Shown: in pieces, positions 1 to 11,156 of the stretch
Position numbering within the stretch: the first letter of the stretch is position 1
How the letters are laid out: the number at the start of each line of letters is the position of its first letter
DNA from: Chthoniobacterales bacterium
GTDB lineage: Bacteria; Verrucomicrobiota; Verrucomicrobiia; Chthoniobacterales; Chthoniobacteraceae
Length of the DNA: 11,156 nucleotides
Direction of reading: 5' to 3'
NCBI GenBank assembly: GCA_038207335.1
Contig: JBBQZX010000047.1
Location: 1 to 11,156 of the forward strand
Notes under the pieces: model-generated
Told to the model about the DNA's origin: nothing
What the model saw: only the letters and a program-made list of their open reading frames with translations
Database searches by the model: none
Program-made: the position numbers and the translations under genes

Positions 1-178
1 CCACTCCCCCACTCCAATTCACACCATCTTTCCAATCCCCTCCCGCCCCATTGATCCACGCCACCGCCGCCGGCGCGATTCGTGCCTCCAACGGCTCAGG
101 CAGATTGAAGTGACACGACGCCGCGGAGCTCTGCAAACGGCTCCGCCGCGACACCGCGCGGGAAAAGAACGAGTTCAT
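1..178 (-). CDS. N-terminus of a LEPR-XLL/planctomycete-extracellular-leader-type secreted protein, 3'-truncated by the window edge (not in the ORF track)
   Basis: Manual translation from ATG at 178..176: MNSFFSRAVSRRSRLQSSAASCHFNLPEPLEARIAPAAVAWINGAGGDWKDGVNWSGGV, with no stop before the edge. It contains EPLEARIAPA (97..68) and the W-x-x-x-x-GG-x-W-x-x-x-x-NWS motif that opens many beta-solenoid surface proteins. An alternative in-frame ATG lies at 202..200. Confidence 0.9.
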   Translation of the reverse strand, partial: MNSFFSRAVSRRSRLQSSAASCHFNLPEPLEARIAPAAVAWINGAGGDWKDGVNWSGGV

Positions 179-287: not shown

Positions 288-3200
288 TCAGACCGTCCGC
301 ACGACGACTTCCCCGGCGTCGCCGATGCCGTTGCTGTCCAAGTCGATGACCGCGCCGTTCGACGTGAACGCTGTTACCACCGCACTCGTGCCGATTTTCA
401 GGCTCTTGAGTGCGAGCGATTCGATCGCGTCGGTGTGATCGAAAAGACTCGCGAGGATCGGCGTGCCCGCGCCGCTCGCCGCGCCGATTTTCACCGCGCC
501 GATTTTGCTCCGCGTGGAAAGCCCGCCGGTCGCGCCCGCGAAATCGTTGCTCGTGCCGAAAAGGAAATCTGCGCCGGGAGCAATCCCCGCCGCGACGGTA
601 CTCATGGCGAAGCGCCCGCCGACGGTGAGCGAAGCGATCGAGGCGTGCGCGTTGTAGCTGTCATCGCCGGTCAGGAAGATTGCGTCGCCGCTCACATCCG
701 CGCCCGCGACGAACCAATCGCGGTCCGCATTTTTCCCAACCGCGATCGCACCCAAATTTCCGCTCGCGACGATTTGCGAATTCTCGAATGAGCCGGAGAC
801 CTTGATGAAACCAATGCCCGCGGCCCTCAGGTCATTTGCGACCACGATCGAGCGCCCTTGTCCCGCGAAAAAGAAACTCGCCGAGACCGTCCCCGCGTCC
901 TTGTTTTTTGCGGAGACATTCAGTCCCGCGATGCTGCCTCCGGCGCGCGCAACGACGCTGTCGAGTTGCGTCGTCGTCGCGTCGCCGCTGGCGTTGAACG
1001 CGCCGATATTTCGTCCAGCGATGAAGTTCGCAAACGCCGCCGCTTCATTCACTGATGCGGTCGCGCGGCCCTTCGAGACTTTCAAAGTGACGGCTCCGAT
1101 GTCCGTGCTGGCGTTGAAATTCACGCGCTGCGTCGAAGCCACATCGAGCGCCACATTCGCCTCCGCCGCGCCGCCAGCGGAGGCGGAAATTTTCCCGATC
1201 GAGCCACCGGCATTGAAGTTCACGTCGAAGTTCTCGGCCTGGATCGCGGCAGCGCGGCCGCTCACCGGAGATCTGCTCGTCACGAGCGCGACCGCGCTCA
1301 CGTTTCCGAGATTGTTGTGCGCGAAAAAGTCTGTCTCCCGAATCGCGGCAAGCTGCGCGGTCGCGGCCGGAGAGGACGCCTTCGCGGTGATCGCTCCGAT
1401 GGATCCGCCGTCGCTGGCGAAGGTCGGAATGTCGATCGCGATGCCGTCGGTCAGCGCGGTGCCCGTCACGCTCGCCGAGATATTGCCGATGTTTCCGGTC
1501 GTCGCGTGAAACAGTCCGCCGAAGAATCCGCGAGCGATCGTCATCGTGCCGGTCACGCTCGCGGTGAGGTTTCCGATGCTTCGCGCCTCGATCAAATTGG
1601 TGTCGATGGAGGCGACATCTGCGGTCTGATTGCTCAGTTTTGCGGTGATGTTTCCGATGCTTCCGCCGAGCGCGCGGATCGTGCTCGAGGCCAGCGGGCC
1701 GCTGGAAACCGTGATGTTTCCGATGTTCCCCGAGAGCGCCGCGATCGTCGATGCGCCGATCGAACCCGCGCCAATGGCACCGATCGAAGCGGCTGAAAGT
1801 TGCGTGCTCACCGCACCCTTGATTTTCAAGTTTCCGAGCGCGCCTTCGACTTGGAACGCCGTGCCGAACAGCCCGCCAGCCTTGATATTGACAGGCCCGA
1901 GCGTCGCCGTGCCGGCGTAAAGCCCACCGCCATCGACATCGACTGATGCGCGGAAATCGCCCGCGGTGACGTTGAGTCCGGCCACGCTTTGCCGCGATCC
2001 GAGCACCCCATCGAAGGCCCACGAAAGCACATTCACCACGCCGACTTTCGTCGCGAAATCCGTGGTGATTCCCTCACCGAGGGCGTCCCGGAATTTCACG
2101 TTGAGCGTCGTTTGGGCGACCGCGACATCGCTCAGCGTGCCGCCGATTTTGAGCTGCGTGAATGCCGCGATGTCGCCGAGCGCGAGCGACTTCACGGCGC
2201 CACCGATCACGAAATCGTCCGCGCCGTCGTCGTAGCCGTCGCCGAGCACGACACTGCTGCTGAGAGAAATGGATCCGAGCGCACCCGCGCTCGTGATGCG
2301 TCCGACATTCACGCTGCCGCCACTCGCCGTCGTGATCTTCAGCGCCGTTTTTATATCCGTATCGGTGAGCACGATCGCGCGCAAATCCGCCGCGTCCAAA
2401 ACGCCATTCACGAGCGACACGACCCCGGAGCCATGCCCGGAAAGCTTGATGGTGACTAGCTTCCCGGTCGAGTCATGCACTTGCACCGCGTGCGCCGCGT
2501 CGAGCGTGAACGTCGTCCCTGCGACCACCATCACGCTCGCATCCGCAACCGGCGGCAGCGCCTCGTGATTCCCCGCGCCATCCAGCCCGCTCACGACGAA
2601 ATCGTACGTGTGCCCGACGACTCCGCTGAAAATCGCCGCATGATAAGTCGTCCCGAGCAGGAGCGGTTCGAACTTCCCGCCATTGTCCGAGACGAACACC
2701 TCGAACGTCGCGAGGCCGGACCCACCCGCGTCGTCCGCCCCGCTCCAGCGCACCGTGAAATCCGGTCCGCTGGTGCCGTTCGCCGAGATCGTCTCGACGT
2801 GCGTGATCGGTGCCGTCGCGTCGATGGTGTTGAAAATGGACGGCGTCTCAATCGCATCGTTGGCGTCGAAAACGATGCTCGCGTGCGCGTCGATCGTGTC
2901 GCCGGTGTGCGCACCCGTCTTGGCCGAAACGCTGTAGCTTACGAATCCCTCACCCTGCCCGCCGCTGATATTGGGCGGCAGAAAACCGAGCGACGCATCC
3001 CCCGGCACATCGCCGGTCGCCGGATCGATCGCGCTCAGCGACCAATGAACCGTGCCCGTCTGGAGGTCGATCGACGCCGAGAAATCCACGAACACCCCGA
3101 GAGTCGCGACGGCATCCACGCGTTGCGTGAACGAGCTGCGTCCGTCGGGAATGACGTAGGTTTTTCCGCCAAATCCAAACTGCGTGACGCGGAACGTCGA

Positions 3201-6200
3201 GAAGTCCAAATCCGCATCGAGCGTCTCGGTGACGAAGACCTCCGCCGCCGATGCGGACGCGGTCGCGACATTTTCAAAATGGATCGTGTACGGCAGCGTC
3301 GCGGTGGCAGCGACGAAATGCGCGTCACCGAAACCGCCCGGCCCGATGATGTCGTTCGGGTCCACCGAGCGGACCTGGCGAATCGGCTGCGAGGGCACGG
3401 GAACGACCGGCTTTCCGGGCGCACCGGGAGGCCCGGACGGCGGCGGTGGCGGTGGCGGCGGTGGGTTGCATTCGGCGTTGTCGCCGCCCGAGTTGGCCTT
3501 GCAGCGCTCGTAGTCGTCGCGCTTGCCGATGGCGTTGGAGACCGCGTCGTAATACTGCTGGACGGCGTTGTCGTAGTTAGTCTTGAGGCCATCGAGGAAC
3601 TGCGCGGCGTCCCGCGAAGCAGTCAGATTGAGCGCGGACACCACTTTCTGACCGTTGAAAAGCAGGTTGAGCGCGGAGGCGATCGGCCCGCCGAACTTCA
3701 ACTGGCCCACCACTTCGGGATTCAGGGACTTCAAGAGGTTGGCGTAGGACGTCACGGCCTTCGCGGAGTCGAGCGCTCCCCGCTCGGCGGCACTGCCGAC
3801 GTCCTTGGCATCGTCCGCAAAAATGATCCGGCTCAAGTCCGCCACGAAATCCGCCAACCCAGCGTACGCGAGGCCCGCCACCACGCCGGCACCCAGCGGC
3901 ACCCCGATGCCAGCCAGCGCGGCGAGCCCCAGATAGCCGAGGCCCACATTCTTCACGTCCGTCCCGAGTTCTCCCAAAAAGATGCCGATGCTCCGAGCCG
4001 CCTGGTCGCGCAACTGCATTTCCTGCTCCTTCGCCTCCATGAAGGTGCGATCCTGCTTTTCCTTCGCCTTCACCGCGGCGTCGTAGGCGCTCTGGCACGC
4101 ATCCCCGCACGCACCGGGCGGAGGAGGCGAAATGCTTTTCACCTCGCTCTCGCTGTGCATGAGGTCCTTGTGCTGGAGCACGGTGATGAAGGTGGGCGTC
4201 TGGATCGTGGGCAGCCCGAACGAGCCGAGCGCGGACAGCGTGCTCGGAGCCGTCAGCAGCGAATGCGCGGATGCCGCCTCGACCGTTGCTGCCAGGAAAG
4301 CAGACGCCGCGGGCGAGCCGCCGGTCGCGAGCAGATCGTAGGTGAAATTTCCGAGCGCAAGGGTTTGCCCGCCGCTCAAGTTGAGCCCGGTCGCGAGGGT
4401 CGTCTCGCGCCCGCCATCGGCCTGCGCCGCCGCGCGCAAGCCGGAGCCGACCGCGGACGTGATTTCAAACGTGCCGTCTGCCAGCGACAACCCGGTGCCG
4501 AGGACGTGCCCGGCCGCGTCCGTCACGTTCACACTCGTGGCCGTGATCGGCGTGCCCGACGCATCGACGATGCGCCCCGTGACGGTCGTCGTCCCCGGCT
4601 GCAACACGACATCGCGCGCCGTCTGGCCCGCCGCGATCGTGATGCCGGTGGCCACATTCACGGCGTAGCCATCGGCGAAAGTGACGAGGTCGTAGCTGCC
4701 GGGCTGGACATTGGAAAGCAGGTAGCTGCCGTCCGTGCCGATGGGCACGATCACCGGCGCACCCCCGCCCGCCGGATAAAGCGCGACGTAGCCATCGTGC
4801 AACATTCCCGCGCCACCGTTGATCGTCACCGTGCCGGAGACGATCCCCTGCGCGGCCAGCGGCACCGTCACGCCGAAACTCCCGGAAGCGCCGACCGTCA
4901 CGTTCATTTGCGCGCCGCGAGCGTCGCCCTGAAATGCCTCGGCCACGTAGTTGCCAGCGGGCAGGTGGGAAAATTGCGCGAGCCCGTTTTCATCCACCAG
5001 CGCGAAGCCCACGATCTCACCGGACGCAGCATTTTTGATGAGCAGCACCGTGCCATCCAGCGAGCCCGCACCGCTGGTCACGGTGACGGCAAGCGTGGCC
5101 GCTCCGCTCGTCAAATCCTCCGTCGCCGTCGCCCCCGCGCCGACCACCACGCCATTCATCACGGCAAAGACCGCATCGCCCGCGAAGGCCTGTAAATCAT
5201 AGGTTCCCGGGTTTTCGAGGAGGAAAAGATAGTGCCCGCTGCCATCCGCGGTGGCCGTCGCGATCGTCTCGCCATTCTGCTTCAACGAAACCACGCCACC
5301 GCTCGCGATACCGCCGTCGGCGAGCAGCAGCGTGCCCGTGATTCGCGCCGCCACCGCACCGTGCAGATCGACGCCGGTGATCGCCGAGTCGAGCGTCGGC
5401 AGCGCCGCGTCGCCTCCCGCGGCAGCGCCCTCGAACCGCACGAAGAGGTGGTAGTTCCCGGTCGCGAGATTTTCGAAAAGGTAGTGCCCAGTGGAATCCG
5501 TGAGCGCGTTCACGACACGCCCGTCCGACGCCGTCGCGAAGACCGGCACGCCCGCGAGCGCCGCGCCCGTCGCCGTGTCCGTGACCACACCCGTGATGCT
5601 GCCGCCGGGCTTCACGGCGACGCCCACGCCGGCGCGATCTTCGCCGCTCCCGAGCGCCACGCTCACCGGCACCTGAAACGCTCCATTGCCGACCACTTCG
5701 ATGTCGTAAGTCCCCGCGGCCAGATCGCTCAGCGTGTAGTTGCCACTGCTGTCGGTCGCTGCCGAAGCCAGCACCACGCCGCCCGCTTTCGCGACGACCG
5801 TGAGGCCCGATGCGGGCTGCGCGGGATCGGTCGAGGTCACGATGCCGCTGATCGTCGCGCCATCAATCAACGCAATGTTGCCGAGCGCGTTGGTTTGGCC
5901 CGCCGCGACGGTGAGCTCACCGATGATTTTCACCACATCGCCCGGATGCGAAATGGTAAGGTCGTACGCGCCCGCGGGCAGACCGGTGAACGTAAATTGC
6001 CCGCCCGTCACCGACGCGCCAAAAACGTGCAGCGGATCGCTGTCGCCGATCGGCCGCGCGATGACGAAAGTATCGCCCGTGGGATTTCCCGAAGTGACGC
6101 TGCCAGCGATGCGCCCTTCATCGGCGAGGCTCACATCGAGCGAGACGCCACCGCCGCTCACCGCGACATTTTCGATCACCTGCCGCGCCTTGCCGGGAGC

Positions 6201-9200
6201 GGTGAAAATCAGCGTGTAAATCCCGTCGGCGAGCCCGCCGAGCGAGTACGCGCCATTCGCGTCGGCGACCGTCGCGCGAAAGGTCCCGTCGGCGGCGAGC
6301 ACCTCGATTTCCGCGCCCGCGAGGATGCTGCCGGACACCGCTGCGCCTTTGGAAAGATCGAGCGCGACGTTCGCCACATGATCGCCCGCAGAGACGAGAA
6401 GCGCGGGCGGATTCGCGATCAACGCGCCGTCGAATTGCAGCGTGTAATGTCCCGCCGAAATCCCGCTCAGCGCGAACGAACCGTCGTTCAGCGAGGTCGT
6501 CGAAAATTGCTCCAGCGTGTCGAGATTGGTCGCGATGACTTCGCGCCCCGAGACATCCACCAGCGGGTCGGCGGAATGCGCCACGCCGCGGATCGAGGTC
6601 TTCGCATCGGCGAAAGCCTGAGCCAGCGGCAGAGCCAGCAGCGCCAGCGGTTCGCGCGCGTCGCCGAGCTCCGGCGGCAGCAGTTTCGCCACCGCCGCGA
6701 GCACATCTTCATACTGCCCGTACGTCGTGCCGAGCCGCGTCTTCAGCGACGCCAGCACCGGCGCCCACGCGGCATCGCTGATCTCGACGGGCCGCAGCAG
6801 CAACTCGACGCGACCGTAATCGACGGGAGCGGCGCGATCGACTTCGGTGAGGAGAAAATTGCTGACCAATCCCTCGCCCTGCACCTCCGGCAAAAACGTG
6901 ACGTATTGTCCGCCGCGAAAGCCCGGAGCGAGCACGCCCGGATCGGCCCCGTCGCCGAGAGCCATGAGTTCGAGATAGTCGGAATGGAACCCGGGATTCC
7001 CGGGAAAACTGAACGAACCGTTGTCGGAAATCAGCACGAGCAGCGGCGCGATGAGATCGTGCCCGGTCGGGTTGCTGAAGCTCACGAGCACCGTCGCCGT
7101 TCGCCCGAGGCGAATCGCAGCCGGCGCGGCAAAGCTGAGCGTGACTTGCAGCCCGGAGTCGATCACCGGCGCGGCGAGCACGTTGAAAGCATTGTCGAGC
7201 ATCTGCGTGTCCGCGCCGCTCACGGCCTGCACATCGTAGTTGCCCGGCGCAGCACCGGTAAGATCGAAGGTCGCAAAAACCGAAGTGGCGTCGCGGACCT
7301 GCACCTTCACGGGCGTGAGCACCGCGCCGCCGAAATTCGGCACGAGGCTCAGCGCCGTCGCGGTGGAAAGCTGCGCGCCGCGGATGGTCAGCGTCACCGT
7401 GCCGTTGTTCGTGCCGGCAAACGGGCCGACACCAGTGAGCGAAAATGGGAGCGCATCCGCAGTGAGCGTGAGCGCCGCGCTGGCGCGTCCGCGCACGAGG
7501 ATGAAGTAGTTTCCGTCGAGCGAATCGGCGACGGTCAGGCTCTGCGTGGTCGAGAGCGGATCGAAGGCGAAAGCATCGCTCGCGGAGACGGTCGGCAGCG
7601 CACCGAAGCGCAGGAAAAGCTCGGCCTGTCCGGCGAGTGCGCCAGCCACTTGCACGCGCGACGAAGCGTCCGGCAGATCGACGCGAAAGAGCAGCTCCTG
7701 CCCATCGGTAATCGACGCATTCAGCGGCACGCCCGGCGTGAGCACCGGCACATCGACGTTCACGGAGCCCGCCGAGATGAGCGTGTTGTTGGCGTTGTCC
7801 GTCTCGGCGACTTGCGAGCGGCTGTCGGTGACGACGAAGACATGGAAAACGCCCGGCAGCAGCGCGGGCACCGCCGCCGTGATCGCGTCCGCATACGACG
7901 CCCCGCCCGACAGCGCTCCCGTGTGCGGCACGCGCCCAAAGAGCACCGCCGAGGAGTCGAAAATCGCGCTCCTTGAAAGATAGATCGAGTCCGTCCAGGT
8001 CGCCGCATTGGTCGGATCGGCACCCGCGTTTTGGACCTGAAAATTGATCGTCACATTCTGCCCCGAGAGGCCATTTGCCGGCACGACGATCGACTGCGGG
8101 ACGAGGTCCGCGAGCCCGCTCAGATTCCCCACCGCAAAGGTGTAAGCTGTGGCCGCGCGCGTCGGCGTGAAGACCGGCTGCACGCCATTCAGCACCGCGA
8201 AATCCCCGGCCACGCTGCCATACGACAGCAGCGCGTAATTTTGCCCCTGCGTCGGCACGAACGCCCCGTCGAGCATCAGCTCCAGCGTCCCGCCGAGCGC
8301 CGCCTGCCCGGTCGTCGTCACCTTACCGAAATGCCCGCTCGCCGACGCGCCCGCGACGTGCAGCCGGAGCGTCCCCGCGCCGGTCTGCGTGAAATTCTCC
8401 GTCACCGCCAGCGTCGCGCCCGCGCCGATTTCGATCGTGCCCGAGTTCGTCAGCGGCCCCGGCAGCGGACCCATCGGATTCGTCGGCGGATTGAAGGTCT
8501 GCGCCGCCGTGGTGAAGGTCGCGCCATTCAAAAGGCGCAGCGTTCCAGTGTTCGCGCTGAGATTCGAAAAGGGCCGAAACACCGTGCCCGCGCCGCTGAT
8601 TTCCACGGTCGCGGCATTCGTCGTGATCTTCGAAAGCGGATTATTGAAAGCGTCCGTCGTCTCCGCCGCGATCAGCCGGATCGACGCGCCGCCGGAGACT
8701 TTCCAAGTGCCGCCGAGCAGGGTGCTTTGATCCGCCGAAAGCTGCGGCACCGCGATGAACGACGGGATGAGCACCTCGCCGCTGCCCACGTCGAGTGTGC
8801 CGCTGTTGCTGAAAGTCGTCGGCGAAATATTCAGCGTCCCCGTGCCGCTGAGGCGCTGGATCGTGCCCGCATTCACGAGCGTCCCGCCGCTCCCGGCCGT
8901 CGCCACGTTGATCGCATCGGCGCGGAAAATCACGGTGCCGCCGGCGGAGTTCGTGAAGTCCGAGCCGTTGATGACCGAGAGCGCCGCGGACGCTGTCGTG
9001 CTGAAATCGAACGTGCCGGAATTCGACACGTCCGTGTTGTCGAAGACCAGACCGAACGCGACCGTCATCGTCGCGCCGCTCTGCACCGTCCATCCGCTCA
9101 GATTCTTGAACGACGGTAGCCCCGAGACCGCCCACGTCGCGCCCGCCGGCGTCACCAGCCCGCCCGGCCCGTTGAGCGTCACCTGCACGATGCTCGTATT

Positions 9201-11156
9201 CGGATGCGCGTAGGTCAGGCCTGGGTCGTTGAAAGTCAGCGTGCCCTGCGTGAAAGCGAACGCGCCCGCGCCGGTCCACGTCGTCCCGGCATTGAACGAA
9301 AAGACCGCTGACGCGAAGGAAATTGTCGCGCCCGTGCCGGACCGAAATTCGCCGGTGCTCGTCGGCGTGCCGACCACGTTGAGCCGTTGAATCGTCGCCT
9401 GCCCGCCCTGCACGTCGAAGAGCCCGTCATTGTGCAAAACGCCGTCGAACGTGAACGACGTGCTCGCCGGCCCGACGCGCAGGATGCCGTTGTTGTTCAC
9501 CGTGAAACGCGCCGTCAGTCCCTGCGAGCCCGAGCCGGTGAATTCCACGAGCCCGTTGTTGTTCAGCACCGCGTTCGTGCCGTTGCCGAGCGTCCCTTTC
9601 ACCGAGATCGTCCCGGCATTTTCCACCGTGCGATCGAGCACCGAGAGCGTCGCCGCGCCCGCCCCGCCCACGCTCAGCGTCCCACCATTCGCGATCGTCG
9701 TTTTGCCCGTGCCGCTCATCGTGCCGCCGATGGGAAAAGTCAGCACGCCGCCCGTCGGCACCGTGTAGTCGCCCGCACCGGTCAGCGTCCCATTCACCTG
9801 CAAATCCGCCACGCTCAGCGACAGCCCCGCGGCGATCGTCAGCGTGGTGTTTTGATTCACGAAAAAGTGCCCCGCACCGGACCACGTCGTGCCGGGCTGC
9901 ATCGTGTAATTTTGCAGGAAGCCGCTGAAGCTGATCCCCGCGCCAGCATCGTTCGTGAAGCTGCCGACCGTCGTCAGCGGCGTGAGGATGACGAGCGTCC
10001 CCGCGATCGAGTGGACGCTGCCCGAGATCGAGGCGTTGCTTGCCGAGATGGAGGCGCTGTCACCGGGCGCGTTGGAGTTGATCGCCCCGCCGCTCACGAC
10101 CGTCAGCAGGCTCGCGCCGGAGCCGGTGAGCTGCACATGGCCGAAGAGATTCACCACGCCGCCGGAGAGCACGTTGAGCGTCGATTGCTCGTGGAGATTG
10201 AGGAGCGCCGCGTTCAGATTCAGCGTGCCGGAGAGCTCCAATTCGTGATCCTCGAGCGACTCTCCGCCGCTCGCATTCACCACCGCGCCCGCCTGCACGA
10301 TCGTCCTGCCCGCGCCGAAAAGCTGACCCCCATTCCAAGTCACAACCCCGCCACTCGGGATGACGATGTCGCCCGCGCCGCCTGCCTGACTGAACTCATC
10401 GAGCTGCAGCGTGCGAATCGTCGCCGACCCCGCATCCACCGTCAGCCTCGCAAACCCCGCGACGAGGTATCGCCCCGTGCCATTCAGCAGTCCGCCCGCC
10501 GCGATATGATGCCCATTCGGCCCACCGCCCGCCATGAAGCCGAGCGTCGCGCCCGCGTCCACATTGTAGCTGCCGCTGTTCAGCGTATCGCCGCGCAGAT
10601 CGTATTCGCCCGCGAGCACATGCAGCGTCCCGGTGTTCGTGAGCGGCCCAAAGTGCAGCGACGTGCCCGACACATTGTTGAGCGTCCCCGCATTCGCGAA
10701 GTCCCCCACGATGTTCAGCGTGTGCGTGCCCGTCACATTGAAAACGCCGCCGACCTGGTTCGTGAAACTCACGCCCACAGCCACGCCGAAGTTCACCGCC
10801 CCGCTCGTCAGGTTGAAGATCCCCGCGTTATTGAAATTCACGTTCAGCGTGTCATTCGCCGCATAAGTCACCGTCCCGTGACTCCTCACCGATCCCGCGC
10901 CGATCAAGGTCACACCGCCATTCCACGCGATGCTGCCCGTCACATCCAGCGCGCCATCCACCATCAGCGTCGTATTGAAAAGCGAGAGCCCTCCCGTGAT
11001 CGAAGACGCCCCGCCCAGCTCCAGCGAACCGCCCGTGAACGCCAGATTCTCCGCCGCCGTCAGCGTCTTCGCGTGCTGCGCCCCCGTCGTGATCGTGATC
11101 GTGATCGTCCCCGGGAAGTCCGGAATCGACACATCGTCCTGATCCGTCGGCGCCAC
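288..11156 (-). CDS. Giant multidomain extracellular/surface protein (adhesin- or polymorphic-toxin-like), 5'-truncated by the window edge, >=3622 aa
   Basis: Uninterrupted 10.9-kb frame ending in TGA (tca at 288-290). It has G/A/T/S/V-rich extracellular composition and recognisable CARDB, carboxypeptidase-regulatory-like, DPND and FN3-like motifs. The first codon (GTG at the window edge) is most likely an internal Val, not the true start. Confidence 0.97.
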   Translation of the reverse strand: MAPTDQDDVSIPDFPGTITITITTGAQHAKTLTAAENLAFTGGSLELGGASSITGGLSLFNTTLMVDGALDVTGSIAWNGGVTLIGAGSVRSHGTVTYAANDTLNVNFNNAGIFNLTSGAVNFGVAVGVSFTNQVGGVFNVTGTHTLNIVGDFANAGTLNNVSGTSLHFGPLTNTGTLHVLAGEYDLRGDTLNSGSYNVDAGATLGFMAGGGPNGHHIAAGGLLNGTGRYLVAGFARLTVDAGSATIRTLQLDEFSQAGGAGDIVIPSGGVVTWNGGQLFGAGRTIVQAGAVVNASGGESLEDHELELSGTLNLNAALLNLHEQSTLNVLSGGVVNLFGHVQLTGSGASLLTVVSGGAINSNAPGDSASISASNASISGSVHSIAGTLVILTPLTTVGSFTNDAGAGISFSGFLQNYTMQPGTTWSGAGHFFVNQNTTLTIAAGLSLSVADLQVNGTLTGAGDYTVPTGGVLTFPIGGTMSGTGKTTIANGGTLSVGGAGAATLSVLDRTVENAGTISVKGTLGNGTNAVLNNNGLVEFTGSGSQGLTARFTVNNNGILRVGPASTSFTFDGVLHNDGLFDVQGGQATIQRLNVVGTPTSTGEFRSGTGATISFASAVFSFNAGTTWTGAGAFAFTQGTLTFNDPGLTYAHPNTSIVQVTLNGPGGLVTPAGATWAVSGLPSFKNLSGWTVQSGATMTVAFGLVFDNTDVSNSGTFDFSTTASAALSVINGSDFTNSAGGTVIFRADAINVATAGSGGTLVNAGTIQRLSGTGTLNISPTTFSNSGTLDVGSGEVLIPSFIAVPQLSADQSTLLGGTWKVSGGASIRLIAAETTDAFNNPLSKITTNAATVEISGAGTVFRPFSNLSANTGTLRLLNGATFTTAAQTFNPPTNPMGPLPGPLTNSGTIEIGAGATLAVTENFTQTGAGTLRLHVAGASASGHFGKVTTTGQAALGGTLELMLDGAFVPTQGQNYALLSYGSVAGDFAVLNGVQPVFTPTRAATAYTFAVGNLSGLADLVPQSIVVPANGLSGQNVTINFQVQNAGADPTNAATWTDSIYLSRSAIFDSSAVLFGRVPHTGALSGGASYADAITAAVPALLPGVFHVFVVTDSRSQVAETDNANNTLISAGSVNVDVPVLTPGVPLNASITDGQELLFRVDLPDASSRVQVAGALAGQAELFLRFGALPTVSASDAFAFDPLSTTQSLTVADSLDGNYFILVRGRASAALTLTADALPFSLTGVGPFAGTNNGTVTLTIRGAQLSTATALSLVPNFGGAVLTPVKVQVRDATSVFATFDLTGAAPGNYDVQAVSGADTQMLDNAFNVLAAPVIDSGLQVTLSFAAPAAIRLGRTATVLVSFSNPTGHDLIAPLLVLISDNGSFSFPGNPGFHSDYLELMALGDGADPGVLAPGFRGGQYVTFLPEVQGEGLVSNFLLTEVDRAAPVDYGRVELLLRPVEISDAAWAPVLASLKTRLGTTYGQYEDVLAAVAKLLPPELGDAREPLALLALPLAQAFADAKTSIRGVAHSADPLVDVSGREVIATNLDTLEQFSTTSLNDGSFALSGISAGHYTLQFDGALIANPPALLVSAGDHVANVALDLSKGAAVSGSILAGAEIEVLAADGTFRATVADANGAYSLGGLADGIYTLIFTAPGKARQVIENVAVSGGGVSLDVSLADEGRIAGSVTSGNPTGDTFVIARPIGDSDPLHVFGASVTGGQFTFTGLPAGAYDLTISHPGDVVKIIGELTVAAGQTNALGNIALIDGATISGIVTSTDPAQPASGLTVVAKAGGVVLASAATDSSGNYTLSDLAAGTYDIEVVGNGAFQVPVSVALGSGEDRAGVGVAVKPGGSITGVVTDTATGAALAGVPVFATASDGRVVNALTDSTGHYLFENLATGNYHLFVRFEGAAAGGDAALPTLDSAITGVDLHGAVAARITGTLLLADGGIASGGVVSLKQNGETIATATADGSGHYLFLLENPGTYDLQAFAGDAVFAVMNGVVVGAGATATEDLTSGAATLAVTVTSGAGSLDGTVLLIKNAASGEIVGFALVDENGLAQFSHLPAGNYVAEAFQGDARGAQMNVTVGASGSFGVTVPLAAQGIVSGTVTINGGAGMLHDGYVALYPAGGGAPVIVPIGTDGSYLLSNVQPGSYDLVTFADGYAVNVATGITIAAGQTARDVVLQPGTTTVTGRIVDASGTPITATSVNVTDAAGHVLGTGLSLADGTFEITSAVGSGLRAAAQADGGRETTLATGLNLSGGQTLALGNFTYDLLATGGSPAASAFLAATVEAASAHSLLTAPSTLSALGSFGLPTIQTPTFITVLQHKDLMHSESEVKSISPPPPGACGDACQSAYDAAVKAKEKQDRTFMEAKEQEMQLRDQAARSIGIFLGELGTDVKNVGLGYLGLAALAGIGVPLGAGVVAGLAYAGLADFVADLSRIIFADDAKDVGSAAERGALDSAKAVTSYANLLKSLNPEVVGQLKFGGPIASALNLLFNGQKVVSALNLTASRDAAQFLDGLKTNYDNAVQQYYDAVSNAIGKRDDYERCKANSGGDNAECNPPPPPPPPPSGPPGAPGKPVVPVPSQPIRQVRSVDPNDIIGPGGFGDAHFVAATATLPYTIHFENVATASASAAEVFVTETLDADLDFSTFRVTQFGFGGKTYVIPDGRSSFTQRVDAVATLGVFVDFSASIDLQTGTVHWSLSAIDPATGDVPGDASLGFLPPNISGGQGEGFVSYSVSAKTGAHTGDTIDAHASIVFDANDAIETPSIFNTIDATAPITHVETISANGTSGPDFTVRWSGADDAGGSGLATFEVFVSDNGGKFEPLLLGTTYHAAIFSGVVGHTYDFVVSGLDGAGNHEALPPVADASVMVVAGTTFTLDAAHAVQVHDSTGKLVTIKLSGHGSGVVSLVNGVLDAADLRAIVLTDTDIKTALKITTASGGSVNVGRITSAGALGSISLSSSVVLGDGYDDGADDFVIGGAVKSLALGDIAAFTQLKIGGTLSDVAVAQTTLNVKFRDALGEGITTDFATKVGVVNVLSWAFDGVLGSRQSVAGLNVTAGDFRASVDVDGGGLYAGTATLGPVNIKAGGLFGTAFQVEGALGNLKIKGAVSTQLSAASIGAIGAGSIGASTIAALSGNIGNITVSSGPLASSTIRALGGSIGNITAKLSNQTADVASIDTNLIEARSIGNLTASVTGTMTIARGFFGGLFHATTGNIGNISASVTGTALTDGIAIDIPTFASDGGSIGAITAKASSPAATAQLAAIRETDFFAHNNLGNVSAVALVTSRSPVSGRAAAIQAENFDVNFNAGGSIGKISASAGGAAEANVALDVASTQRVNFNASTDIGAVTLKVSKGRATASVNEAAAFANFIAGRNIGAFNASGDATTTQLDSVVARAGGSIAGLNVSAKNKDAGTVSASFFFAGQGRSIVVANDLRAAGIGFIKVSGSFENSQIVASGNLGAIAVGKNADRDWFVAGADVSGDAIFLTGDDSYNAHASIASLTVGGRFAMSTVAAGIAPGADFLFGTSNDFAGATGGLSTRSKIGAVKIGAASGAGTPILASLFDHTDAIESLALKSLKIGTSAVVTAFTSNGAVIDLDSNGIGDAGEVVVRTV
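291..2525 (-). other. C-terminal ~745-aa beta-solenoid region with G-S/N-I-G-x-I/L repeats and Asp-rich loops
   Basis: Starts with HDSTGKLVTIKLSGHGSG. Many GALGSI / GNIGNI / GSIGNI / GSIGKI / RNIGAF / GNLGAI units follow, and it ends DLDSNGIGDAGEVVVRTV-stop. Confidence 0.7.
2526..2822 (-). other. Fibronectin type III-like domain
   Basis: DATAP.THV...FTVRWSGADDAGGSGLATFEVFVSDNGG.F...G..GHTYDF....DGAGNHE. Confidence 0.75.
2820..3368 (-). other. DPND-motif Ig-like domain (DUF7619-like)
   Basis: SVDPNDIIGP...LPYTIHFEN...A.A.EV.VTETLDADLD.STF...IDPATG...GFLPPN...GEGFVSY...ASIVFDAN..IETP..FNTID. Confidence 0.8.
3384..3464 (-). repeat. Proline-rich linker (P9 run at 3438..3464 followed by SGPPGAPGKPVVPVPSQP)
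   Basis: cggcggcggtggcggtggcggcggtgg on the + strand encodes nine consecutive Pro (mixed CCG/CCA codons). Confidence 0.95.
3468..4127 (-). other. All-alpha insert of unknown function: coiled coil, 32-aa uncharged hydrophobic segment, helices, coiled coil; bracketed by two Cys pairs
   Basis: Charged helical run QSAYDAAVKAKEKQDRTFMEAKEQEMQLRDQAAR, hydrophobic VGLGYLGLAALAGIGVPLGAGVVAGLAYAGLA (3947..3852), and return helix LKTNYDNAVQQYYDAVSNAIGKRDDYERC. Cys codons at 4107, 4095, 3501 and 3468. Confidence 0.75.
4335..6599 (-). repeat. Nine tandem carboxypeptidase-regulatory-like (prealbumin/CnaB-type fold) repeats of ~76-87 aa
   Basis: Each unit begins with I/V-x-G-x-V/I (TSIRG, AVSGS, RIAGS, TISGI, SITGV, RITGT, TLAVT, IVSGT, TVTGR). 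Most contain T/A-D-x-x-G-x-Y/F-x-x-x-x-L-x-x-G-x-Y. Confidence 0.9.
6600..7151 (-). other. DUF11-like Ig domain followed by a short helical bundle
   Basis: APAAIRLGRTATVLVSFSNPTGHDLIAPLL...PGVLAPG (beta), then the amphipathic helical stretch RPVEISDAAWAPVLASLKTRLGTTYGQYEDVLAAVAKLL. Confidence 0.55.
7179..7445 (-). other. IPT/TIG-like Ig domain
   Basis: LTGVGPFAGTNNGTVTLTIRGAQL...ATFDLTGAAPGNYDV...LDNAFNV. Confidence 0.7.
7449..7748 (-). other. PPC-like (pre-peptidase C-terminal) beta-sandwich
   Basis: AELFLRFGALPT...D...QSLTV....GNYFILVRG resembles the PPC pattern D/E-L-Y-V-R-x-G-x-x-P-T...G-x-Y-Y-I-x-V. Confidence 0.65.
7755..8111 (-). other. CARDB domain
   Basis: ADLVPQSIVVP...G.NVTINFQVQNAG...WTDSIYLS...G.F.VFVVTDS..QVAETDNANN is the typical CARDB signature. 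Confidence 0.88.
8130..8396 (-). other. Beta-helix C-terminal cap module (passenger-domain-like)
   Basis: FTQTGAGTLRLHVAG...GKVTTTGQAALGGTLELMLDGAFVPTQGQNYALLSYGSVAGDF matches the common G-x-A-x-L-x-G-T-L-x-x-x-L-x-x-x-F-x-P-x-x-G-x-x-F/Y end-of-solenoid pattern. Confidence 0.7.
8397..11156 (-). repeat. N-terminal beta-solenoid (autotransporter-passenger-like) region containing four degenerate ~200-aa super-repeats
   Basis: Recurrent N-x-G-T-L/I and N-x-G-x-F turns. Equivalent residues recur at 10923, 10335, 9735 and 9132 (AWNGG / TWNGG / TFPIGG / TWAVSG) and at 10485, 9882 and 9276 (GGLLNGTG / GTTWSGAG / GTTWTGAG), i.e. 196-202 codons apart. Confidence 0.8.

Follow-up and report, generated by a model that had tools for sequence, protein, structure and literature searches.

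The stretch of DNA analysed here (the window) comprises the 11,156 nucleotides of contig JBBQZX010000047.1 from a Chthoniobacterales bacterium (GenBank assembly GCA_038207335.1; Verrucomicrobiota, Chthoniobacteraceae), and is one whole contig of a 53-contig, 5.17-Mb genome. Nearly all of it is filled by a single minus-strand open reading frame (ORF; 288..11156, stop codon at 288-290) for a giant protein of at least 3622 amino acids (aa), the 5' end of which is cut by the contig end. The element under study is a helical domain of about 220 aa, carrying an uncharged apolar hairpin, inside this mostly beta protein; it was first noted at 3468-4127 (aa 2344-2563) and was slightly widened to aa 2341-2567 (3456..4136). 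All features located in the text below lie on the minus strand unless stated otherwise.

Upstream of the insert, the giant protein contains a CARDB domain at aa 1016-1126 (7779..8111; Pfam PF07705, E 4.1e-11) and an array of about eight carboxypeptidase-regulatory-like (transthyretin-like) beta domains at aa ~1548-2250 (4407..6515, limits approximate; PF13620, E 2.5e-52, 8 stretches). Downstream, a Pro-rich linker read from the translation and including P9 (aa 2564-2597; 3366..3467) leads to a DUF7619 domain that begins with a DPNDIIGP motif at aa 2599 (2829..3362; PF24595, E 5.7e-16, with matches at 3180-3362 and 2829-2957). The protein passed the gathering score for DUF7619 (59.2 bits, cut-off 27). 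A conserved FN3-like module and then the C-terminal region follow. Pfam produced no match in aa 2340-2598, and none to RHS_repeat or TEN_YD-shell in the window's protein.

Composition of the insert

A sequence-only reading of the window had described an abrupt change from a low-charge beta protein to about 220 aa of charged helices, and the composition bears this out: Asp, Glu, Lys and Arg account for 21.8% of the domain and 11.9% of the whole protein, and reach 34% in aa 2351-2400. The uncharged Gly/Ala/Leu/Val run of that reading was also recovered, at 33 residues instead of 32 (aa 2403-2435; 3852..3950; 27% G, 24% A, 21% L, 12% V), with Asn2403 and two Tyr as its only polar residues and with the central proline (Pro2420) and GxxxG/A spacing as described. 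GxxxG occurs at 2418 and 2424, and the sole three-step ladder of small residues, G2424-G2428-A2432, has Ala in its last position; a glycine zipper is defined by an in-register ladder of the GxxxGxxxG type. The second, shorter apolar stretch, FGGPIASALNLLFNG (aa 2488-2502; 3651..3695), was located too, with a hydrophobic moment of 0.9-1.0 and with G153, I155, A156 and S157 invariant relative to an in-genome paralog (see below), and looks more like a conserved amphipathic helix than a transmembrane (TM) segment.

The length of the 33-residue run is not unusual by itself, because five longer runs free of D, E, K, R and H occur elsewhere in this low-charge protein. Its 19-residue Kyte-Doolittle mean (KD19) of 1.98 is the second highest in the protein and is reached by 0.03% of 19-residue windows outside the slot (the region directly before DUF7619, defined below), and its helical, charge-flanked setting is unique within the giant protein. 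Hydrophobic moments were 0.9-1.5 in the flanking helices and 0.1-0.5 in the hairpin.

The 3622 aa contain only four cysteines (2350, 2354, 2552 and 2563), and all of them flank the helical domain. A CxxxC pair (C2350-x3-C2354; 4095..4109) stands just ahead of the first long helix and a Cx10C pair (C2552-x10-C2563; 3468..3503) at the end of the last. The paralog likewise has exactly four cysteines, in 2968 aa, all at equivalent places.

Predicted structure of the insert

The AlphaFold and Foldseek check proposed in the sequence-only reading gave an all-helical domain with two confident long helices but no significant fold match. AlphaFold2 models were made from a 10-sequence alignment (mean predicted local distance difference test score, pLDDT, 57.6) and from a 2-sequence alignment, which performed worse (mean 50.0), and the domain was all-helical in both. 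Confidence in the 10-sequence model (model 2) was limited to the two long helices, one N-terminal (aa 2351-2404; 3945..4106; model residues 14-67), with pLDDT reaching 91 in 10-residue blocks but dropping below 50 at residue 64 and beyond, and one C-terminal (aa 2512-2554; 3495..3623; model residues 175-217), with pLDDT of 83-89 over residues 181-210. Residues 64-156, which include the hairpin, had pLDDT below 50. The apolar hairpin starts exactly where the first long helix ends.

With both models, Foldseek gave no match at E <=0.001, the best rows (E 0.069 and 0.15) being to a chemoreceptor sensor domain. Rows for ClyA, AhlB/C, XaxB and Tc pore chains were non-significant (E 0.45-1.7), and the rows for alpha-pore-forming toxins (alpha-PFTs; TM scores of 0.19-0.31) stood beside spectrin, SMC, chemoreceptor domains and designed bundles. 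VIA-align, run against 48,161 chains, matched generic long helical hairpins, with LemA at the top (Z 8.8), followed by YscO/FliJ (8.2, 7.6 and 7.5), colicin E9 (8.0), colicin E2 (7.9), Fap1 NR-alpha (7.7) and colicin Ia (6.7), where Z below ~13 is background for helical models according to the tool's own note. The E9 and E2 matches concern the receptor-binding hairpin, not the pore domain. An Atlas language-model feature search pointed to clusters of colicin Ia and E1 with scores of 0.82 and 0.81, which lie below the 0.9 level and are taken as a lead only.

A hypervariable slot upstream of DUF7619

Relatives were collected with aa 2590-2900 (DUF7619 and the FN3-like module), which matched at least 501 proteins at E <=1e-10; the 120 of these that were listed, 2018-6168 aa long, were analysed. 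Their source names, where given, pointed to Planctomycetota (Pirellulales and others), Chthoniobacteraceae or Cyanobacteria, with two listed otherwise (Saprospiraceae and Rhodoferax). Many relatives carry RHS repeats with a teneurin-type YD shell, and others carry CARDB, transthyretin-like repeats, Calx-beta, cadherin, FG-GAP or subtilase domains. The start of DUF7619 (DPNxxxxGP...F[EQ]N) was located in 112 of the 120, and the other 8 were dropped from the slot counts that follow.

The slot was taken as the segment from the RHS DPxGL motif to DPN in RHS-type proteins, and as the 220 aa upstream of DPN in the others. Clustered by BLASTP (E <1e-5), the slot segments of 113 proteins (the window's included) fell into 67 clusters, 50 of which were singletons, whereas the 280 aa downstream of the DPN motif formed 1 cluster among the same 113 proteins, with a median identity of 50%. 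Several types of module could be told apart in the slot by eye: class A, to which the window's domain belongs and which is helical, Cys-flanked and 200-280 aa long; a ~45-aa unit rich in Cys; a ~180-aa unit containing a GGVGHYGTP motif; Pro-rich linkers; and, in RHS-type proteins, segments that open with one or two TM-like Gly-rich helices at or just after the RHS DPxGL-type motif. DPxGL lay at most 400 aa upstream of the slot in 57 of the 112 relatives (the RHS-type); the site at or after this motif is the position of Rhs C-terminal toxins.

Many relatives (for example L004 on G019:C57, P0011, P0015, P0026 and P0064) have an RHS/YD-shell core followed by TM-like Gly-rich helices, DUF7619, FN3 repeats and varied C-terminal tails of 300-1500 aa. 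Ahead of TM-like helices and DUF7619, instead of a terminal toxin, is an unusual place for an RHS core. In the RHS-type relative P0093, the slot has an HEGVH (HExxH-like) motif after its TM-like helix, a sequence feature which hints that some slot cassettes could be enzymes. At the C-terminus, P0015, P0026 and P0004 share a domain of ~80 aa (SPFQKP...DGDG...RKG), with which several planctomycete-type relatives end; other relatives end in dockerin-like repeats, RTX repeats or DUF4214. The variety of these C-terminal domains suggests that the tails of the relatives are as swappable as the slot. Shorter DUF7619 proteins (L011, L023, L024 and L026; genomes G488, G448 and G522, of the same order; frames of 866-2000 aa) have, immediately upstream of DPND, a Cys-rich segment of ~120 aa that is low in charge and has a Pro-Gly turn at its centre. 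Kinship between class A (alignment A1) and these Cys-rich segments (alignment A2) was considered and none was seen (hhalign probability 0.1).

Membrane-like segments in the slot

The global KD19 maximum of the protein was found within the 300 aa before DUF7619 in 46 of the 112 relatives, compared with 9.4 expected from length (29 of 57 RHS-type relatives and 17 of 55 others). A KD19 peak of at least 1.6, hereafter a TM-like segment, was present in these 300 aa in 44 of the 112, compared with 5.1% of control blocks of equal size taken from other parts of the proteins. The binomial tail (~1e-20) overstates this enrichment because the relatives are not independent, and a count at the level of clusters is fairer: with one representative per slot cluster, the slot held the maximum in 28 of 67, against 5.6 expected. 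The peak windows had a high content of Ala, Val, Leu and Gly. Counting that of the window, 45 proteins had a TM-like slot segment, and a crude 15-residue scan of them, in which the window's own tight hairpin scores as one segment, gave one segment in 21 proteins, two in 19 and three in 4.

The class A family and an in-genome paralog

Class A, which is unnamed and is defined here, is a helical domain of ~200-280 aa situated directly before the Pro-rich linker and the DPN motif, with a Cys (or Cys pair) ahead of helix 1 and a CxnC motif behind the last helix; the window's domain has all of these features. Ten class A domains were aligned (alignment A3, the typed parts of which were verified as exact substrings of the stored proteins), and a hidden Markov model (HMM) of this alignment recovered its ten training sequences from among 121 proteins, plus P0113 as an independent member (E 2.4e-6), giving 11 class A domains. 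In the window's protein the HMM matches aa 2341-2567, the widened limits of the insert. When applied to 151 genomes of the window's taxonomic family, the HMM gave strong matches in the window's own genome and two others, along with two marginal ones (E ~3.5e-4); class A was found in none of the ten genomes of the same genus, several of which are incomplete. The N-terminal Cys (C2350 in the window's protein) and the last Cys (C2563) are invariant (10/10 each), the penultimate Cys (C2552) is present in 9/10 and a Tyr in the last helix is conserved, while the central part of the domain varies in length as well as in sequence.

TM-like segments were present in 7 of the 11 class A domains, always downstream of the first long helix, with KD19 peaks of 2.24 (P0019), 2.10 (P0108), 2.03 (P0048), 2.00 (P0009), 1.98 (P0001, the window's protein), 1.76 (P0121) and 1.72 (P0010). 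Peaks in the other domains were 1.50 (P0005, the in-genome paralog), 1.34 (P0060), 1.33 (P0113) and 0.93 (P0050), and the paralog and P0050 have ordinary amphipathic or charged versions of class A. By eye, the low-charge apolar stretch is longer in P0019, P0048 and P0108, where ~60-90 residues contain 2-4 charged ones.

The paralog is encoded by a 2968-aa frame on contig C37. Per 50-aa window, its identity to the giant protein was 22-62% over aa ~700-2300, 14-32% over aa 2301-2550 and 58-86% after aa 2600, making the insert domain the most diverged part of the pair. No secretion-system genes were seen beside the paralog; its neighbours encode a 4453-aa PATR protein and a radical SAM protein, the others being unnamed ORFs. 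An ORF of 241 aa that follows the paralog was considered as an immunity candidate and rejected, its translation being Arg/Pro-rich and unconvincing.

Searches for a named family

The helical domain is outside any named family, in agreement with the sequence-only reading, which could not assign it to one. It had no match in Pfam (to E <=10) or NCBIfam, and the only row among PDB sequences was UreF at E 0.089. In particular, Colicin (PF01024), HlyE and HBL were not matched in Pfam by the domain (E <=10) or by 10 class A members (E <=1), and in the Pfam scan of these members no family was matched by more than one of them. Pfam was also blank for two RHS-type slot segments. A phmmer search of the domain against 1.84 billion representatives returned 0 matches, which is weak evidence because the library evidently lacks this genome's own protein. 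A word-indexed search with aa 2338-2566 among proteins of 1992-6339 aa found nothing at E <=1, and missed the class A relatives that were later found through the DUF7619 flank. Profile scans with alignment A1 gave no match in genome contigs or metagenome contigs, and in a phylum scan 2 of 401 genomes were matched, the window's own and one marginal (E 0.0038). The alignment A3 profile found nothing among proteins of 493-2000 aa.

Flanking genes and other large frames

The giant ORF is followed, after a gap of 110 nt from its stop to the next gene start, by the beginning of a gene (1..178) whose product, MNSFF...LEARIAPAAVAWINGAGGDW, looks like another giant protein and shares its N-terminal motif with the relative P0009. 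The PAAV within this motif resembles the LapG-type cleavage motif (T/A/P)AA(G/V). N-termini of relatives (P0009, P0010, P0012 and others) carry the same motif, LE-x-R-(I/L)-x-x-(P/S), after a basic stretch, without a hydrophobic signal-peptide core, and this motif may be an undescribed export or processing signal. Two long ORFs on the plus strand, antisense to the giant gene (2475-5195, 906 aa; 5232-7976, 914 aa), are taken as shadow ORFs rather than genes at a GC content of ~65%. Open frames of 1500 aa or more number 93 in the genome, and some of them may be GC-driven artefacts. Among its giant frames, one on contig C16 (minus strand) is 24,413 aa long, with the LExR motif at residue 30 and only 2 Cys, and several others end in PEP-CTERM-like VPEP...hydrophobic tails.

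Relation to described systems

The toxins of the ClyA family (ClyA/HlyE, Hbl, Nhe, AhlB/C, XaxAB/YaxAB) consist of long antiparallel helices that carry a hydrophobic hairpin with amphipathic flanks. The likeness to these alpha-PFTs, which the sequence-only reading had drawn, holds for the layout only, that is, for amphipathic charged helices around an apolar Gly/Ala-rich hairpin, and extends to no sequence or significant fold match: there is no profile match, and the Foldseek rows for ClyA, AhlB, AhlC and XaxB were non-significant (E 0.49-1.7). Unlike these toxins, the domain is inserted within a protein of at least 3622 aa, has a Cys pair on either side and belongs to a family in which the apolar segment is optional. 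Toxins of the ClyA family are elongated helical bundles with a head domain that holds a hydrophobic beta-tongue or hairpin; in the models made here, confidence is confined to the two long helices, and the head region has pLDDT below 50. The colicin pore domain (PF01024) is a globular bundle of ten helices in which a hydrophobic helical hairpin of ~35-40 residues is buried. The long helical hairpin of colicins E9 and E2, and colicin Ia, can be superposed on the part of the model that is confident, at the background level given above, but there is no Pfam match and the hairpin directly follows helix 1 instead of lying near the C-terminus. Giant toxins of the MARTX type are secreted and hold internal swappable effector cassettes; the likeness to them lies in a giant secreted protein with a hypervariable internal slot between conserved regions, whereas the window's protein has no MARTX repeats, cysteine protease domain or known effector fold.

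The Rhs toxin Tse5-CT is a glycine-zipper membrane toxin. CdzC/D (PMC5380434), EsxX (PMC12744356) and the CdiA-CT ionophores (PMC11630599) are grouped with it, as is the entry motif of Tde1 (PMC10240207). The hairpin shares with them Gly/Ala-rich apolar helices with GxxxG, and in RHS-type relatives such helices lie at or just after the DPxGL-type motif. Those toxins, however, are terminal, released and paired with immunity genes, whereas the insert is internal, with no immunity-like gene seen and a loose ladder of small residues. Fibrillar adhesins with isopeptide-type stalk domains (CLIPPER/DUF11, DUF7507 and DUF7619) are treated in a preprint (bioRxiv 10.1101/2025.04.25.650565), and the scaffold of CARDB, transthyretin-like repeats, DUF7619 and FN3-like domains matches theirs, but an all-helical, Cys-flanked, TM-like insert before DUF7619 is not mentioned in its passage on these proteins. 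Nothing on the slot architecture came up among the matches listed by a full-text search on 'DUF7619' or in the passages reached by a term search of the polymorphic-toxin survey PMC3482391.

Possible functions of the insert

The explanation that we prefer, tentatively and at somewhat less than an even chance, is that the apolar hairpin on the helical insert enters a lipid membrane and does so as a swappable cassette. It is preferred because many interchangeable cassettes occupy the slot, frequently with a membrane-like apolar segment, which here sits on a helical arm with Cys pairs at its base. The two long helices (aa 2351-2404 and 2512-2554) would pair in antiparallel fashion, and the four cysteines would form disulfides outside the cytoplasm that pin both ends of the insert together. 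The clamp so formed would resemble the terminal disulfides of the von Willebrand factor A1 and A3 domains. An arm clamped in this way would jut sideways from the stalk, adding no length and being spared the pulling force, with the apolar hairpin at its far tip, ready to enter a bilayer once exposed. A plain helical spacer was rejected, since a domain whose two ends are held to each other by Cys pairs would add no length. As to which membrane is entered, we lean towards a foreign or target membrane over a constitutive anchor. The view of the sequence-only reading that a distinct payload is embedded in the scaffold agrees with the 67 slot clusters as opposed to 1 downstream, with the excess of slot maxima (46/112 against 9.4 expected) and with the divergence of the paralogs, but its placing of the domain at the end of a stalk does not hold, as ~1060 residues follow.

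Several observations weigh against membrane insertion. The hairpin has pLDDT of 28-45 in both models, which do not fix its position, exposure or packing and do not support the earlier claim that it is hidden in a helical bundle. The highest 19-residue hydrophobicity in the protein (KD 2.02) belongs to an ordinary beta segment of CARDB. The arms of the hairpin, with ~15-17 residues each, a high Gly content and the central Pro, are marginal as TM helices by a hand calculation on the Hessa and Wimley-White scales. No small immunity-like gene was found in the window directly after the giant ORF, where the next gene is that of a giant protein. Finally, 4 of the 11 class A domains (P0005, P0050, P0060 and P0113) and 68 of the 112 relatives have no TM-like segment, and the paralog has K and Q throughout the part that matches the hairpin; neither the fold nor the slot therefore implies membrane insertion in general.

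A serious rival, though a somewhat unlikely one, is a soluble helical hairpin or bundle on the stalk, the variable tip of which would bind a partner or self-associate, with the Gly/Ala segment as a packed core or protein-protein interface. It is to be taken seriously because the two-helix arm is the only part modelled with confidence, because charged, clearly soluble class A versions exist (P0050 and the paralog) and because small-xxx-small ladders pack soluble helices too. The receptor-binding coiled-coil hairpin of colicins is a model for such a displayed arm, and the best structural rows were generic helical hairpins of this sort (colicin E9/E2 receptor-binding hairpins, YscO/FliJ and the alpha subdomain of the adhesin Fap1), but at Z values that are background for helical models. 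Moreover, a buried core should keep its length and pattern, yet the segment ranges by eye from absent to ~90 residues; a 33-residue run with so few polar residues is unusual for a soluble helical tip, and the enrichment of TM-like segments across unrelated slot cassettes would be left unexplained. With the same anatomy as in membrane insertion, the insert could also be an alpha-PFT or ionophoric toxin payload, in which a soluble bundle hides the hairpin and then opens to make pores or ion leaks in a target cell. This we regard as distinctly unlikely, although it would fit the glycine-zipper-like composition (GxxxG at 2418 and 2424), as in the membrane-depolarising toxins EsxX, CdzC/D and the CdiA-CT ionophores, and the hypervariability of the slot, which recalls the toxin ends of polymorphic toxins. 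The location of the slot at the Rhs toxin position in RHS-type relatives, the HEGVH motif after the TM-like helix in P0093 and the feature scores for colicins Ia and E1, at lead level, point the same way. Against it stand the lack of a Pfam match to Colicin, HlyE or HBL for the domain and 10 members, the occurrence of alpha-PFT chains solely among non-significant Foldseek rows, the internal position of the domain, with ~1060 aa downstream and no known release site, the lack of an immunity-like ORF downstream, and a paralog that has no apolar hairpin. Taken as a whole, the pore-forming or membrane-inserting effector of the sequence-only reading is partly supported: its layout and its embedded payload agree with the results, but no match to a pore toxin in sequence and no significant one in fold was found.

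The sequence-only reading had set aside a membrane anchor on the grounds that extracellular-type folds lie on both sides of the hairpin, but this argument carries little weight, as the two flanks of a hairpin end up on the same side of the membrane. A constitutive anchor, in the form of a two-helix TM or leaflet-embedded tether in the producer's own membrane with both flanks outside, would accordingly suit the extracellular-type domains on either side. Outer-membrane lipoproteins of the SlyB type have two-helix glycine-zipper anchors, TM-like segments recur at the slot position and the crude scan counted two segments in 19 of 45 proteins. We nevertheless consider an anchor quite improbable, because most relatives (68/112) and the paralog lack the segment, which would make anchoring optional. 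The 21 of 45 proteins with one segment are a further difficulty, as a single pass would split extracellular-type domains across the membrane, and so are the short, Gly-rich arms and the acidic residues scattered in the apolar stretches of the family. The N-termini of P0009 and P0010 have no classical signal peptide and P0050 and P0083 end in RTX repeats, features that together would suggest an export route bypassing lateral insertion.

Significance

Most giant surface proteins from soil and water bacteria are classed as 'adhesins' and taken no further. In a family of at least 501 such proteins, with lengths of about 2000-6300 aa, one defined position behaves like a cassette slot, being hypervariable and about 5-fold enriched in membrane-like segments, and in about half of the relatives it lies at the Rhs toxin position. 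A wider possibility, which we judge unlikely, is that the DUF7619-FN3 giants of Planctomycetota, Verrucomicrobiota and Cyanobacteria are undescribed polymorphic effector carriers with a swappable payload in an internal slot before DUF7619, in many of them directly after an RHS core, and that the window's cassette represents a new disulfide-clamped pore-forming or membrane-penetrating family unrelated to ClyA and the colicins. If the cassettes are membrane-active effectors, they would constitute a new delivery architecture, in which the payload is internal and not terminal, as well as a new supply of membrane-inserting domains; as tethers, they would explain how such proteins are held at the membrane without known sorting signals. 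The Cys clamp around a helical insert would be a simple design principle for shielding a soft domain within a load-bearing stalk.

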